Shown here: positions 4,537-11,544 of the stretch, piece after piece
How positions within the stretch are numbered: position 1 is the stretch's first letter
How the letters are laid out: every line of letters begins with the position of its first letter
Assembly (NCBI GenBank): GCA_040765985.1
Contig: JAXGRK010000001.1
Location: 136,513-200,512, forward strand
Length of the DNA: 64,000 nt
Source of the DNA: Candidatus Dojkabacteria bacterium
GTDB taxonomy: Bacteria > Patescibacteriota > Dojkabacteria > SC72
Direction of reading: 5' to 3'
The notes under the pieces: model-generated
Seen by the model: only the letters and a program-made list of their open reading frames with translations
What the model was told of the DNA's origin: nothing
Database searches by the model: none
Made by a program: the position numbers and the translations under genes

Positions 4537-4566
4537 TCGACAGAGTATGTCTATAAAAGGTATAAT
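4537..4566 (+). promoter_or_regulatory. candidate promoter of the ATP-grasp operon
   Basis: TCGACA, an 18-nt spacer, then TATAAT (4561-4566), about 40 nt upstream of the 7TM gene ATG. Confidence 0.35.
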
Positions 4567-4604
4567 TATGGGTTATTTATTATAATTTTAAGGTATACAT
4601 AAAT

Positions 4605-5270
4605 ATGTTTGAAACTTCTAATTTAACACAATGGATTATAAATCAAGGAGTATCTCAAACAGTCCTTGAGATAATGATTTCAATGTGTATTGTAGCAACA
4701 GTCGTAAGTATAGCGAGATATATATTCGGTAATAAAACTTACGGTATATACGCACCAATAATACTTGCAATTGCATACTCATATACGGGATTAAGATATG
4801 GATTGGTAATAACCTTAATAGTAATACTAACTTCCCTACTCTCCTACTCACTACTAAGAAAAATCAGAATGCACTACATTACTCGTATAGCAACCAACTA
4901 CATTATCCTCTCTATTGTCCTAATCTTCTTTCTAATTCTAATCAACAACTTCGGTTTTGGATTAGATAATATGTCTAACATACCTTCACTTGCATTCATA
5001 TCTATCGCTGCACTCTCTGACTTTTTCATCAAACAGTACATACAAAAATCTCTAAAAAGTTCTACTATGACTCTCTTTGGTACAATCTTAGTAGCTATAG
5101 TAGGATGGTTTGTAATAACAAGAGATTTAATTTCTAATTTTGTACTTAATAACCTCTGGATAATTCCCTTACTTGCATTTGTAAATATACTCTTAGGTAC
5201 TTTTAAGGGTCTAAGAGTAAAGGATTACTTTAGATTTAGGTTTAAGGACAAAGAAGATAATGATAAGTAG
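4605..5270 (+). CDS. 7TM membrane protein, resembling the 7TM module usually fused to inactive transglutaminase (7TM_transglut-like)
   Basis: 221 aa with about 7 hydrophobic helices. The N-terminal VSIARYIFGNKTYGIYAPIILAIAY and C-terminal LLGTFKGLRVKDYFRFRF match my recollection of the PF14402 consensus (..RqivGlktfGtFtPiLiAlaF.. / ..GRYtGyRLtElwRFr). The gene overlaps the next one by 11 nt. Confidence 0.7.
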   Translation: MFETSNLTQWIINQGVSQTVLEIMISMCIVATVVSIARYIFGNKTYGIYAPIILAIAYSYTGLRYGLVITLIVILTSLLSYSLLRKIRMHYITRIATNYIILSIVLIFFLILINNFGFGLDNMSNIPSLAFISIAALSDFFIKQYIQKSLKSSTMTLFGTILVAIVGWFVITRDLISNFVLNNLWIIPLLAFVNILLGTFKGLRVKDYFRFRFKDKEDNDK

Positions 5271-6735
5271 TATTATCAAACAAAATAAAGAGATACTAGG
5301 TCTTAACAGAAGGAATCAAGAGTATGTAAGACCATTTAATTCACCTTCTTCTAAATCTATCGCAGATAACAAGATATACACAAAGAGATTACTAAAAAAA
5401 GAGCTAATACAAACACCAGAGGTATACAAATTAATTAGAACTAAAAAACAGTTAGAGTTCCTTGATTGGGAAAGCTTACCTAAAAGCTTTGTAATTAAAC
5501 CAAACCAAGGAACTGGGGGTAACGGTATTGTTGTCTTTTACGGTAAGAAGAAAGGTAAATGGGAATGGATTAGACCTAATGGCACTTCAATGACTAAAAG
5601 AGATATTATACTCCACATTGAAAATATCCTTGAAGGAAGATTCTCTATGGGTTCTAAAAATGATATTGCCATAATCGAGGAGAGAATAAAAACAGATCCA
5701 TTACTAAAACAGTATTCATACAGAGGTGTACCTGATATAAGAATAATATGTTTTAACCTAGTACCTGTAATGGCAATGCTTCGATTACCGACAAAAAGAT
5801 CTAATGGTACAGCCAATCTGCACTCAGGAGCAATATGTACAGGAATAGATATTGGTTCAGGTATTACTACCTACTCTATGCATATGAAACCAAATTCCAT
5901 ATTTAGTGATACTTACGAACTAATCGATTTTACTTTAGATTTAACAAACAACAAACCCTTAAGTGGAATACAGATACCAGAATGGAATAACTTACTTGAA
6001 ATTGCTTTAAAGTGCCAGAAAGTAAGTAAACTAGGATACATTGGTGTTGATATCGCTCTTGATGCGGAGAAAGGTCCTGTCGTATTCGAAATAAACGCAA
6101 GACCTGGACTTGGAATACAGGTTGCCAATCAGGCAGGACTACGATGGAGATTAGAGAAGATCAGAGATGTAAAGATTAAAAACATTAAACACGGTATTAG
6201 AGTTGCCAAAAATCTTTTTGGTGGTGAAATAGAGGAAAGTATAGAGGCAATCAGTGGAAGAAAGGTCTTAAATATAACAGAAAAGATATATGTATATGAC
6301 AAAAGTGCTGATGTTACTAACTTAGAAAAGTACAAAGAAAGTAAAAGAGAATTAGTAAAAGCATATATGGATACTGGTGTTATTACCTCTCGAATAGATT
6401 CTAAACTAGCTAATAGGATTGGATATATAAATGCACACAAAGAATTTGATGCATTAAATATCCCAAAGAGATTTAATAGTTTTAAAGAGGCACAAGAGTA
6501 TATTGATAAATTTGAGAAAGAGGTATTTAATAGTAGTGAAATTAAAAGATTGGCTAAAATTGTTGAAGATGGAGAAATAAGGATTAGGCCAGTATTCGAT
6601 ATCCCAATTAAAATATCTGATAAAATTAAGATAACCGAATTCATATCGACACAATCATCTGATATTTTATATCCCATAGCTATGGGGAGGTCGGATTTAA
6701 CTGGATACTTGATTGATACAACAAATACATTCTAA
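5260..6735 (+). CDS. alpha-L-glutamate-ligase-like ATP-grasp enzyme fused to a C-terminal retropepsin-like ('ATP-dependent zinc protease', PF05618-like) domain
   Basis: The N-terminal ~315 aa carry ILGLNRRNQEYVRPFN, FVIKPNQGTGGNGI, YRGVPDIRIICFNLVPVMAMLRLPTKRSNGTANLHSGAI and GPVVFEINARPGLGIQVANQAGL, matching the TIGR02291/ATPgrasp_ST pattern. The C-terminal ~160 aa carry VKAYMDTGVITSRID (a D-T-G motif) and ILYPIAMGRSDLTGYLIDT, matching the PF05618 pattern ..AKiDTGArTS.. / ..MkyrmLLGR.al.g.flVDp. Confidence 0.75.
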   Translation: MISSIIKQNKEILGLNRRNQEYVRPFNSPSSKSIADNKIYTKRLLKKELIQTPEVYKLIRTKKQLEFLDWESLPKSFVIKPNQGTGGNGIVVFYGKKKGKWEWIRPNGTSMTKRDIILHIENILEGRFSMGSKNDIAIIEERIKTDPLLKQYSYRGVPDIRIICFNLVPVMAMLRLPTKRSNGTANLHSGAICTGIDIGSGITTYSMHMKPNSIFSDTYELIDFTLDLTNNKPLSGIQIPEWNNLLEIALKCQKVSKLGYIGVDIALDAEKGPVVFEINARPGLGIQVANQAGLRWRLEKIRDVKIKNIKHGIRVAKNLFGGEIEESIEAISGRKVLNITEKIYVYDKSADVTNLEKYKESKRELVKAYMDTGVITSRIDSKLANRIGYINAHKEFDALNIPKRFNSFKEAQEYIDKFEKEVFNSSEIKRLAKIVEDGEIRIRPVFDIPIKISDKIKITEFISTQSSDILYPIAMGRSDLTGYLIDTTNTF

Positions 6736-9439: not shown

Positions 9440-9440
9440 C

Positions 9441-10385
9441 TTGAGATATTTAATACTTGATAAGAAACAGCGACTAAATGAAGACAACACAGCAAGTGCC
9501 AATATCCGAATTGCTGAGGAATTGGACAAAAAAAGTATACCCCACTCTCTTGCATACTTTGACGAATTAGAATTTGAGTTCATAGATGGTGAAACAGTGA
9601 TAAAAGCCAAGGGAGAGGATATAAGGAAATATAGTCATATCATATTCAGAGGGCATGATTTACATAGTGACATGGAGTATCACTTTAAAAGGTATATCGT
9701 TGAATACACTGATCAACATAATGTAAACAATCCTCAAAATAAGGTATTAGTACAAAATAGTAAAAGTATTAAAAAGCTTCCTTACTACAACAAAATCTCA
9801 CTCGCCCTATTCTGTTCTTTGCATAATATCCCTTACTTTAATACATATTTTAGAACAGACGGTAAATATTTAGAACAAAGAGATGTACTTAACTCATATC
9901 CTTTGATAATAAAAGATTACTCTGGTGCAAACAGAATAGAAAAAATAGATGGGAAGGATAAAATAAAAAAGAATGTATTTAAACTTGATTCAGTTCAAGA
10001 GTATCAACAGGAGTATCTTAAAAATTTAGACCTTTCTAGGATGTTTATTCAAGAATTCTCGGATAGTAATATAGACATGAGGATTTTCGTTAGCAAAGGG
10101 AAAGTAATAGCTGGATGGAAGAGACAAGGAAGTCAAAGTTTCATGACAGTGAGTAACGGAATATATAGTATGTACAACATTCCAGAGGATAGTATAAAAA
10201 TTTTTTCAGAGAATGTTGCACGGATTTTTGGAGCAGATTTTATCGCTGTAGATATCATGATGATGAATGGAAAACCATTACTACAGGAAATAAGTTTACA
10301 TCCTGGATTCAAAGCATATGAGAACAAAATAGAGGGGAAACCGATAAATATAGCCGAAGCAATAATTACATCCTTTAATGATTAG
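9441..10385 (+). CDS. RimK-like ATP-grasp ligase (TTG start)
   Basis: 314 aa with ATP-grasp C-terminal motifs (YPLIIKDYSGANR, MFIQEF, DMRIFVSKGKVIAGWKR, FIAVDIMMMNGKPLLQEISLHPGF). It starts 2 nt after the previous stop. Assignment to the RimK subfamily is by pattern only. Confidence 0.6.
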   Translation: MRYLILDKKQRLNEDNTASANIRIAEELDKKSIPHSLAYFDELEFEFIDGETVIKAKGEDIRKYSHIIFRGHDLHSDMEYHFKRYIVEYTDQHNVNNPQNKVLVQNSKSIKKLPYYNKISLALFCSLHNIPYFNTYFRTDGKYLEQRDVLNSYPLIIKDYSGANRIEKIDGKDKIKKNVFKLDSVQEYQQEYLKNLDLSRMFIQEFSDSNIDMRIFVSKGKVIAGWKRQGSQSFMTVSNGIYSMYNIPEDSIKIFSENVARIFGADFIAVDIMMMNGKPLLQEISLHPGFKAYENKIEGKPINIAEAIITSFND

Positions 10386-11544
10386 ATTTCTAGTTTCTTA
10401 AAAATATCCTTCCATTGCTCTTTCGTAGGAACAATTTTTGGTTTAGGAATTAAGCCATCGTCAACCCATTCACACTGATCAATATCAATCTTACCTGCGT
10501 AAAGTTTTTCATACAAAGATTTATCTTTCTCTAGTGCTTTTTTTACCTTTCTAAAGCCCCTAAAATATACTACATCTTTTGCATATATTCCTGGATAACT
10601 TGTATCCCCTAGTCCCCTTTTAACACTAAAAGTAATATCGAAGGATGTTATCTTAGGGAAAACCCCCAACAAGCTATTGTAAAGTTGTCTAAAGGTTAGT
10701 TTCTCTCCAATATATATGGCCCACGTTAAAGCAGCTTTCTTTTGCAACCATCCTAGAGTCAATAAGTCCATATCAGATTCGTTCCAAGTAGCCAAACCCT
10801 CTTCTACATCTAAATAACTTGTTAAATTAGCATTAGATAACGGTTCAACTCCACTACTTTCACCATTAACGGATCTTAGCACATGGGTTCCAACCTCATG
10901 TACGAGTGTCTTCTTTAACTTAAATTTAGATCGTTGAATATTAGGATCCACTAATACCCATTTACTTTTAATACCTACCTTAGCACCATTCTGACGAATA
11001 TTTGATGAACTCTGTACTCTCCAACCATCAAGATTAAAATATTCAAAAGTCTTGTTAAATATGTATTCAATCTCTTTGTAATCTAAAAGATCTTCTTTTT
11101 TACTACCGGATATTTAACTATATTGTAGTTATCAACGTTTCCTCGTAATACTCTTGCAGAATTCCTAAAAAGTAATGCCGAAGGCCTACCATACTTCTTA
11201 TTTGATATTTCAGTTACAATATCGTTATTTCCAACTGCATTTATTAAATCGTTTACTTCTTTCTTTGATTCTATTAACTTAATATAGAAGTCGGAAATCC
11301 TTGGATCCACATTAGATATCTGCTTTAATGAAGCTAATCTTTTTAGAATCTCACTATTATTGTTCTTTAGCTTCCTATATGTAAAAATTGGATCATAGAT
11401 ATCAGAAGAGAAAAATTTTTCTCTCTCACTTTTAAGATTTATAGGGGTAAATACTAAACTCAAAGGTAATCTAAGCTTATATAGCAATTGATTGACCTCA
11501 TCTGTACGCATACTTGTTTTATCTGATTTTGAAAATACGTTCAT
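10382..11544 (-). pseudogene. DUF1704 / MATCAP-like (QEGLA-motif) metallocarboxypeptidase; frame broken by a 1-nt indel in a T6/A6 run (11096-11101)
   Basis: ORF 11083..11544 (N-terminal part) and the frame containing 10382..10951 (open up to 11113) join to about 387 aa. Motifs are LVHEVGTHVLRS (HExxxH) and VEEGLATWNE (the QEGLA equivalent). The ATG overlaps the mreB stop (TAATG), and the stop codon interdigitates with the stop of the convergent RimK-like gene. Confidence 0.7.

Follow-up and report, generated by a model that had tools for sequence, protein, structure and literature searches.

A class-wide Dojkabacteria operon of ATP-grasp ligases and peptidases that may build and trim an acidic peptide chain at the membrane

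Candidatus Dojkabacteria (WS6, Candidate Phyla Radiation (CPR)/Patescibacteria) carry a conserved locus of five plus-strand genes (A, B, C, D and F) and a convergent gene for a MATCAP-like carboxypeptidase, which we examined in region 4400-12600 of a 64-kb stretch of Dojkabacteria DNA, hereafter the window. Several described systems resemble parts of this locus. RimK extends a Glu-terminated tail on ribosomal protein S6, and in the RimK-RimB pair a cytoplasmic ATP-grasp Glu ligase is matched by a cytoplasmic retropepsin-like endopeptidase that trims poly-Glu. In the tubulin code, an acidic C-terminal tail gains residues through ATP-grasp-type ligases (TTL/TTLL) and loses them to a dedicated carboxypeptidase (MATCAP/TMCP); MATCAP acts on tubulin C-terminal tails, removing Tyr. 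Gene neighborhoods of this kind were reportedly predicted by Iyer, Abhiman, Burroughs and Aravind in 2009 in their work on amidoligases. We found no description of the Dojkabacteria operon in the searchable literature.

A third relative is the RloABC system of Pseudomonas aeruginosa and P. fluorescens, for which both genetics and structures have been published (Lormand et al., mBio 2025; PMC12239564). Its genes, which lie together, encode a TIGR02291-type ATP-grasp (RloC), a PF14402 seven-transmembrane (7TM) protein (RloB) and a PF05618 retropepsin-like peptidase (RloA). In vitro, RloA cuts polyglutamate, and a triple rloA mutant (rloA1-3) fails in hypo-osmotic medium and shows shape, biofilm and antibiotic defects. 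These defects are suppressed by deleting rloB or rloC (PMC12239564).

In the Dojkabacteria locus, a compacted Rlo/Rim-type module located in the cytoplasm is joined by a pair of CphA2-like polymerases and a trimmer of the MATCAP type, and the combination is fixed in a whole CPR class. The observations concern the superfamily memberships of the proteins, the conservation of their catalytic motifs, the folds of the retropepsin domain of B and of D, and the co-inheritance of six genes. We propose that the operon encodes a membrane-associated amidoligase/peptidase machine that would synthesize and trim, in the cytoplasm, an acidic Glu/Asp-rich peptide chain at the membrane, a reading that we favor but rate as evenly poised.

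Co-inheritance was assessed by scanning one genome per GTDB species with an alignment of D, which recovered 79 loci, all in Dojkabacteria-type metagenome-assembled genomes (MAGs), and by tblastn searches of these loci with ten window proteins. All 79 are colinear, reading rplJ-rplL-A-B-C-D-F followed by convergent MATCAP-MreB2 and then a PEGA-domain gene, with genes missing only at contig ends and median gaps of 8-41 nt between operon genes. Two divergent loci (L086 and L087) are arranged differently: rplJ-rplL is inverted, MreB is gone from the neighborhood and D has been relocated behind the MATCAP-like gene. A, B, C, F, MATCAP and D are nonetheless clustered there, and because these six stay together despite the reshuffling, we regard them as the functional unit; MreB2 and rplL are neighbors, not obligate members. 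In both divergent loci the inverted rplJ-rplL pair (1615-2658; 3508-4455) still adjoins the operon, with divergent promoters and a spacer of 195-235 bp.

D-type proteins were found only in this class. Homologues of B and D belong to Dojkabacteria or WS6 whenever they are named. A D profile run against 1.84 billion representative proteins retrieved full-length D-like proteins at 936-320 bits, followed by a sharp drop to giant multidomain and CphA1-like proteins at 303 bits or less; all three second-tier D-like proteins bearing a name are labelled Dojkabacteria and five others are nameless, so that this search found no D-type relatives beyond the class. The rearranged layout of L086 and L087 is the genomic setting of such second-tier proteins. 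Many of the GTDB species-representative MAGs that carry the locus (L006, L007, L010 and others) are titled 'uncultured Candidatus Saccharibacteria', one 'Microgenomates' and one 'Gammaproteobacteria'; these record titles are probably mislabelled. The GC content of the locus equals that of its flanks. The first-pass annotation, made from the sequence alone, had described an island, and this term does not hold: flat composition and synteny in 79/79 loci rule out a horizontally acquired island, and the locus is an ancestral, vertically inherited, class-wide Dojkabacteria operon.

The gene content of the window can be read only after repair. Unrepaired, region 4400-12600 holds open reading frames (ORFs) that are more numerous and shorter than in the first-pass annotation, among them four adjacent pairs in different frames that meet at A/T runs. 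Comparison of the first 13 kb of the window with L001, a contig of 96% identity (NCBI GCA_964543485.1), revealed single-base indels at 7171 (C, extra A), 8023 (D, extra A), 11096 (MATCAP-like gene, base missing) and 11982 (MreB). All four are ±1 base inside A/T runs of five or six, and the genes are intact in L001. Three more single-base indels lie downstream (15686, 16065 and 16480), and nearly all of the seven fall in homopolymers. The repaired proteins are 97-100% identical to those of L001 on either side of each break.

With four of the eight genes between 6752 and 12559 interrupted, the window might be taken for a decaying locus in which real frameshifts have left pseudogenes in this strain. 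We find this hardly credible, since every break is of the homopolymer type and missing from the 96%-identical genome, the flanking protein identity is undiminished and the essential-type mreB gene is hit as well. With the genes intact in L001 and further indels close by, the breaks instead appear to be sequencing or assembly errors, as is typical of homopolymer error. For annotation, this means that homopolymer frameshifts account for a seeming orphan and for several split genes in this record. Frameshifts may likewise have split genes at window 47895-49658 and 32156-37554 (minus strand), where, respectively, a leucyl-tRNA synthetase (LeuRS) ORF is only 587 aa long (N-terminal and editing parts) and two overlapping Laminin_G_3 ORFs of 926 and 912 aa abut each other.

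Repair changes the gene count. A false 97-aa ORF (7741-8034) and a 466-aa ORF (8039-9439) are one 565-aa gene, D, split at 8023; L001 and about 120 database homologues have D as a single protein of 559-571 aa. This leaves five genes on the plus strand, not the six products counted in the first-pass annotation. The 97-aa ORF, which had been offered both as an orphan and as a candidate substrate of the ligases, is the N-terminus of D, confidently modelled within D and undivided in relatives. A public protein of 456 aa (P0128) is identical to the truncated D fragment, which suggests that the deposited annotation inherited the break. The tight packing described earlier is retained in part: A and B do overlap by 11 nt, and the repaired gaps are 16 nt (B-C), 7 nt (C-D) and 1 nt (D-F) in place of 8, 4 and 2 nt. 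Overall, the families named in the first-pass annotation were right and its gene count, orphan, missing M domain and island were wrong, so that its observation is confirmed in part.

Gene A (4605-5270, plus strand) encodes a 221-aa protein with seven transmembrane helices that corresponds to the RloB 7TM module. It matches PF14402 with 64 bits and covers only positions 311-503 of the 508 in the NCBIfam RloB model, i.e., the C-terminal 7TM part, in agreement with the earlier statement that it corresponds to a module usually fused to an inactive transglutaminase. A transglutaminase-like domain is absent from gene A and from all 62 orthologues. Applying the positive-inside rule, we read the predicted topology as N-out, C-in.

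Gene B (5260-6735, plus strand, 491 aa) encodes an RloC-like ATP-grasp of the alpha-L-glutamate-ligase-like kind (about residues 1-320) followed by a RimB/RloA-like retropepsin domain (about 330-491), a fusion that was correctly recognized from the start. The ATP-grasp matches PF14397 with 224 bits and TIGR02291 with 286.4 bits (model positions 8-291 of 317), under the curated cut-off of 314.2 and far above its 47 bits against the RimK model. Its ExN motif is present in 61/64 orthologues. Pfam and NCBIfam profile searches of the locus matched the families that had been expected, PF05618 only weakly: sequence evidence for the C-terminal extension of B is weak (PF05618, E 0.008; NCBIfam RloA3 model, 1.6e-5). 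Among 26 orthologues, D41 and T42 of the DTG motif are invariant and the G nearly so, and G and L of (I/L)GRxxL are invariant. A profile of the domain searched against the PDB finds RloA crystal structures best, then Ddi1. The AlphaFold model (predicted local distance difference test score (pLDDT) 87) has as its top Foldseek matches RloA2 (9g59), RloA (9g58) and the DUF785 structure 2pma (E 7e-6 to 7e-5), with HIV protease and Ddi1 ranking next. As modelled, the C-terminal domain of B has a retropepsin fold closest to RloA2, RloA and DUF785.

A and B together recall RloABC, with which they share the PF14402 7TM module and a retropepsin-like domain that is structurally nearest to RloA2 and RloA; the ATP-grasp of B resembles the TIGR02291 type of RloC, with a score under its cut-off. 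The trio had been considered a recurrent triad of unknown function lacking a phenotype; for that part of the locus it is RloABC, whose phenotypes are known (PMC12239564). There are four differences. In the Dojkabacteria 7TM protein the periplasmic domain, an inactive transglutaminase, is missing. Ligase and peptidase form one chain, and because B has no signal peptide (read from the sequence) and the protease domain is the C-terminal part of a cytoplasmic ligase, the domain is expected to be cytoplasmic, whereas RloA is secreted/periplasmic. The Dojkabacteria locus adds three ATP-grasp genes and a MATCAP-like peptidase, and it occurs in a CPR bacterium, Proteobacteria accounting for 96% of RloB hits. 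The arrangement of B also resembles RimK-RimB, the ligase and the retropepsin-like endopeptidase being present in one chain. Unlike the ligase of RimK-RimB, which acts on S6, B scores as RloC type, and F, although RimK-like, has altered catalytic residues.

A physical link between the 7TM protein and the ligase is suggested by the 11-nt overlap of A and B together with an unannotated ORF on a plasmid of the archaeon Halobacterium sp. DL1 (CP007061.1; L089, 4197-5966), which fuses a 7TM_transglut-type module to an RloC-like ATP-grasp without the retropepsin domain. As a Rosetta-stone fusion, it argues for a complex of the 7TM module with the RloC-like ligase. Plasmid 5 of Legionella adelaidensis (L088, NZ_LR134414.1, 29382-34603) carries a classic RloA-RloB-RloC triad, in which RloA is annotated as a 'RimK/LysX family protein'. 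The triad is followed by two convergent genes for C1-family cysteine peptidases, which recalls the convergent MATCAP-like peptidase of Dojkabacteria.

The 7TM protein ends in an acidic C-terminal tail (5225-5267), cytoplasmic by the predicted topology, that finishes …FRFRFKDKEDNDK. It comes after a conserved GLRxK(D/E)xxRF motif and is itself conserved in the 62 orthologues. Main-lineage tails follow the pattern K-[DE][DEN]xx-K, with at least two acidic residues among the last seven in 47/62 and a terminal Lys in 44/62. In the divergent lineage (L086 2893-3576; L087 4650-5336; P0391-P0397), six of the seven 7TM proteins end in genome-encoded oligo-Glu; the tail ends read SEEEEEEEREEE, RGDEEEEQE, ESPEELQEE, GETEELEEE, KKDNIEEEEE and AETEELEE. 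A tail that ends in Glu resembles what RimB/RloA-type and MATCAP-type peptidases cleave, and we name the 7TM tail as the best candidate acceptor. The 7TM protein might then be a substrate as well as a dock, its tail a membrane-fixed primer that the ATP-grasp ligases extend with Glu/Asp and that the retropepsin (endo) and MATCAP-like (exo) activities shorten. The MATCAP-like enzyme would possibly strip the terminal Lys first, as MATCAP strips the Tyr of tubulin. We consider this version of the proposal possible, if doubtful.

Genes C and D belong to the cyanophycin-synthetase family. Gene C (6752-7733, plus strand, broken by the extra A at 7171) encodes a stand-alone ATP-grasp of 326 aa homologous to the G domain of CphA. 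It matches TIGR02068 (cyanophycin synthetase) with 201 bits over positions 190-469 and CphA1 structures with E 8e-30, and its ExN motif (74/74) and R160, R236 and N240 are invariant in 74-75 orthologues. Gene D (7741-9439, plus strand, broken by the extra A at 8023) encodes a CphA2-like ligase of 565 aa with an N-G-truncated M domain order. It matches cyanophycin synthetase positions 185-567 and its ExN is conserved. The model of repaired D is confident throughout, including the former "orphan" part (pLDDT 92.4), and structurally it is closest to Gloeothece CphA2 (7ta5; E 3e-40 over 602 aligned columns; template-modeling (TM) scores 0.70/0.68), with CphA1 structures and Stanieria CphA2 next.

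D ends after about 120 residues of the M domain, and this remnant lacks a P-loop; the GTNGKTT of CphA1 aligns with GQSKDD, which is variable across 78 sequences. HxxEH is absent from D residues 1-140, so that D, like CphA2, lacks the Cx19HxxEH metallopeptidase motif defined for the N domain of CphA1 (PMC9262961). The earlier view of two CphA-G-like ATP-grasps without any M domain thus stands as regards the G-domain match of C and D and fails for D, which has an N domain and a truncated M remnant.

We mapped the key residues of StCphA2 (PMC10273328) onto D through a HMMER alignment and scored them across 78 D sequences. The equivalents of R308, D362, R389 and S395 are invariant, and the equivalent of N393 is Ser in 78/78. 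The acidic residue that salt-bridges the Arg of the polymer (StCphA2 D212, SuCphA1 E215; PMC10273328) corresponds in D to a position occupied by K (25), E (19), N (12), T (10), Q (5) or D (4), and in C to Thr in 71/75. Because this Arg-binding position varies freely, D does not look selected for an Arg-decorated chain, while its build is that of a polymerase-like member of the family.

These data bear on bona fide cyanophycin metabolism, in which D would be a CphA2 re-polymerizing beta-Asp-Arg, or cyanophycin would be made jointly by C and D. In line with this idea, D matches 7ta5 best by fold, has the N-G-truncated M order with the loss of the M P-loop and of the N-domain motif as in CphA2 (PMC9262961; PMC10273328), and mostly retains the G catalytic and large-loop residues; D resembles CphA2 (7ta5, 8fxh/8fxi) over the whole chain. 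However, D shares only about 22% identity with CphA2, is by sequence equidistant from CphA1 (152 bits) and CphA2 (141 bits), and its M remnant is the shorter one. It also departs from CphA2 in the N393 and Arg-binding positions, and D-type proteins were found in Dojkabacteria only, not in cyanobacteria. C has no Arg-adding, Mur-ligase-like M domain as in CphA1 and no separate M-like gene occurs across 79 + 2 loci, nor were cyanophycinase and CphA1, which accompany CphA2 in cyanobacteria, or isoaspartyl dipeptidase seen in these loci (the loci, not whole genomes, were covered). A true cyanophycin synthetase with its M domain encoded nearby, which had been named as a refuting scenario, thus does not describe the locus. 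Canonical cyanophycin synthesis is unlikely, and we give cyanophycin metabolism in any form very little weight.

A short defined peptide or metabolite is another conceivable product, for example an osmolyte akin to glutathione or N-acetylglutaminylglutamine amide, or a modification of the peptidoglycan stem or bridge, with each ligase adding one residue and the peptidases recycling it. C and D do reach high scores with GshF (165 and 138 bits) and with the ATP-grasp of N-acetylglutaminylglutamine synthetase (115 and 90 bits), rlo mutants have cell-shape and cell-wall phenotypes, and MreB and a PEGA-domain protein are neighbors. In one deep lineage (L073 9007-9984; L082 3686-4663), moreover, a 325-aa AAT/peptidase-C45 Ntn-hydrolase (PF03417) is encoded on the same strand between C and D. 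We nevertheless judge this product unlikely, since D keeps an N domain and the whole-chain CphA1/CphA2 polymerase architecture that di- and tripeptide synthetases lack, the relatives of the retropepsin domain cleave polymers (poly-Glu), and the cluster contains no Mur, Fem, GNAT or amidotransferase partner. In the deep lineage, the D-F interval also holds genes for a glycosyltransferase and an alpha/beta-hydrolase on the other strand. Intergenic insertions are otherwise heterogeneous, mostly on the opposite strand and lineage-specific, and no recurrent accessory gene was found among them apart from the AAT/C45 gene.

The MATCAP/DUF1704-like metallocarboxypeptidase (10382-11544, minus strand, 387 aa as corrected for one missing base in the T-run at 11096) carries HEVGTH and EEGLA motifs. 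It matches PF08014 with 95.5 bits (cut-off 27) and TIGR02421 with 113 bits, below the equivalog cut-off of 339. It aligns directly with the human MATCAP structures 7z5g/7z6s (E 2.5e-11) through HExxxH, EEGLA and the KRG..DTS.PG block, and HExxxH and EEGLA are kept in 59/60 and 58/60 orthologues, respectively. As had been noted, its gene converges on F and the stop codons interdigitate: the TAG of F (10383-10385) overlaps the TTA of the MATCAP-like gene (10382-10384).

Two described settings of this peptidase family are comparable. The tubulin code shares the HExxxH…E gluzincin of PF08014 and the logic of adding residues to an acidic C-terminal tail and removing them; unlike it, the Dojkabacteria system is bacterial, has no tubulin, and the tail of the adjacent cytoskeletal protein, MreB2, is not acidic. 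Proteobacterial FGase - QEGLA (TIGR02421) - 'glutathione synthase' triads (Shinella, Sinorhizobium) likewise place a MATCAP/DUF1704 peptidase beside an ATP-grasp amidoligase. Their QEGLA differs, however, in having about 620 aa with an extra N-terminal region, none of B, C, D and F is close to their partner ligase, and the Dojkabacteria locus has no N-formylglutamate-amidohydrolase-like gene. F was rejected as an orthologue of the 'glutathione synthase' partner, the BLASTP similarity to B, C, D and F being marginal throughout. In Photobacterium at low salinity, RimK is induced 52-fold and a GshB-like and QEGLA pair 27- to 38-fold (PMC10308900).

MreB2, a second MreB paralogue (11544-12559, minus strand, 338 aa as corrected for the indel at 11982; PF06723, 428 bits), is a context gene. 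In the main lineage the ATG of the MATCAP-like gene overlaps the mreB2 stop (TAATG, 11542-11546), so that MreB2 is translationally coupled to it while standing outside the conserved six-gene module. Dojkabacteria have two MreB paralogues that are about 45% identical (L001 1038-2093 and 16284-17300), one of them beside mreC upstream of the ribosomal genes. A PEGA-domain protein (12612-14189, 525 aa) follows MreB2 directly in the window and in its closest relatives; it occurs after MreB2 in 52/79 loci at a median distance of about 1 kb.

This setting raises the possibility that another protein is tailed. The ligases would modify a ribosomal protein, as RimK modifies S6, or MreB2, in an analogue of the tubulin code, by attaching Glu or different residues to its C-terminus or side chains, and the MATCAP-like enzyme would take them off again. 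The presence of the RimK/RloC family, the known activity of MATCAP on tubulin tails, the adjacency of the operon to rplJ-rplL in both layouts and the overlap of mreB2 with the MATCAP-like gene all speak in its favor. L7/L12 and MreB had been suggested as such substrates, and neither has a constant C-terminus, acidic or other. The last residue of RplL varies across 48 orthologues (A 23, E 14, Q 5, K 4, V 2), which rejects L7/L12 as a conserved acceptor. MreB2 ends …SIT or …[DE]FRR, neither acidic nor constant, and is not beside the module in L086/L087, which downgrades it. CphA-type enzymes, moreover, polymerize free chains. We regard tailing of another protein as improbable, and prefer the proposed synthesis and trimming of an acidic chain at the membrane.

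Gene F (9441-10385, plus strand) encodes a 314-aa RimK-like ATP-grasp with a non-canonical active site. The assignment to the RimK-like group is borne out by PF08443 (34 bits), though F is atypical and lies far under the family cut-off of TIGR00768 (37 bits versus 143). Compared with the RimK proteins of Pseudomonas and E. coli, F has FMTV in place of FRSN and QEIS in place of ExN, substitutions that are fixed in 65-71 of 71 main-lineage orthologues. The canonical catalytic Arg (FRSN) and Mg-binding Asn (ExN) of RimK are thus missing in the main lineage. In the divergent lineage F has FKTT, with K for R, and a canonical ExN. F is conserved, yet judging from its residues its catalytic competence is uncertain.

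We can now sketch how the proposed machine might work. The RloB-like 7TM protein would dock the soluble enzymes on the cytoplasmic face of the membrane, where B, C, D and F could add amino acids with ATP via acyl-phosphate intermediates. The product is most likely Glu/Asp-rich, either a free polymer or an extension of a protein C-terminus. D, with its CphA2-like N-G-dead M architecture, is likely to be a processive polymerase, and C, a G domain only, may supply a building block or partner D. Endo trimming by the retropepsin domain of B, whose relatives RimB and RloA cleave poly-alpha-glutamate (RloA: PMC12239564), would limit the chain from inside, and the MATCAP-like carboxypeptidase would limit it from its end. 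We favor an acidic chain because RloA and RimB cleave polyglutamate, the loss of rloB or rloC suppresses rloA1-3, MATCAP homologues pair with ATP-grasp genes and the 7TM tails are acidic.

The first-pass annotation had already supposed that the ligases and trimming enzymes build and remove a poly-amino-acid tail or polymer, an interpretation that is partly supported. This central idea is the best-supported possibility, strengthened because all six genes stay together where their order and flanks are rearranged; the 97-aa protein and L7/L12 drop out as substrates and MreB is downgraded. By analogy, the physiological role is probably envelope or osmotic/charge homeostasis, as the RloABC phenotypes and the low-salinity induction of RimK and the QEGLA cluster in Photobacterium indicate.

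Several points weigh against this proposal. The CphA-G-like relatives of C and D include small-molecule peptide synthetases (GshF, N-acetylglutaminylglutamine amide synthetase), which leaves room for a short defined peptide. The Rlo analogy is imperfect, RloA being periplasmic and the peptidase here cytoplasmic, and the arrangement is closer to RimK-RimB. Legionella RloB has no acidic tail, F may be inactive in the main lineage, and four genes are frameshifted in the window itself. For these Dojkabacteria proteins, everything beyond family membership is inference.

The surroundings of the operon in the window are well defined. Upstream lie nusG, rplK, rplA, rplJ and rplL, the last of which stops at 4438. 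A terminator-like hairpin on the plus strand (4462-4487; 11-bp stem with five GC pairs, then a T-tract) begins 24 nt past this stop and closes the rplJ-rplL unit. The best promoter-like site of the region, a candidate sigma-70-like promoter by consensus match only (4537-4566, plus strand, TCGACA-18-TATAAT, 11/12 matches), precedes the 7TM start at 4605. These features agree with the original description of a separate operon beginning after the rplJ-rplL terminator. The absence of rpoBC after rplL, also described then, extends further: no rpoB or rpoC occurs anywhere within the 64-kb window, and rplL is not followed by rpoBC in either the main or the L086/L087 layout. A defense system was considered and rejected, as PADLOC gave no match for any of the six proteins.

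Dojkabacteria genomes are very small (contigs of about 0.7 Mb), yet the sampled species all spend about 7 kb on four ATP-consuming ligases and two peptidases, which argues for a core function still to be understood. The unit joins three poorly understood modules (Rlo-, CphA- and MATCAP/QEGLA-type) and is small enough for heterologous expression. It thus offers a compact system in which to ask what an RloC-type ligase makes, what bacterial MATCAP-type enzymes act on and what truncated CphA-like polymerases produce outside cyanophycin. For the missing Rlo substrate, a concrete and testable candidate is the 7TM tail with its acidic or oligo-Glu end. If it is indeed the substrate, it would point to what Rlo-type systems modify more generally, and the Dojkabacteria operon would represent, in bacteria and at the membrane, what the tail code is for tubulin, maintaining a tunable polyanionic brush beneath the membrane.

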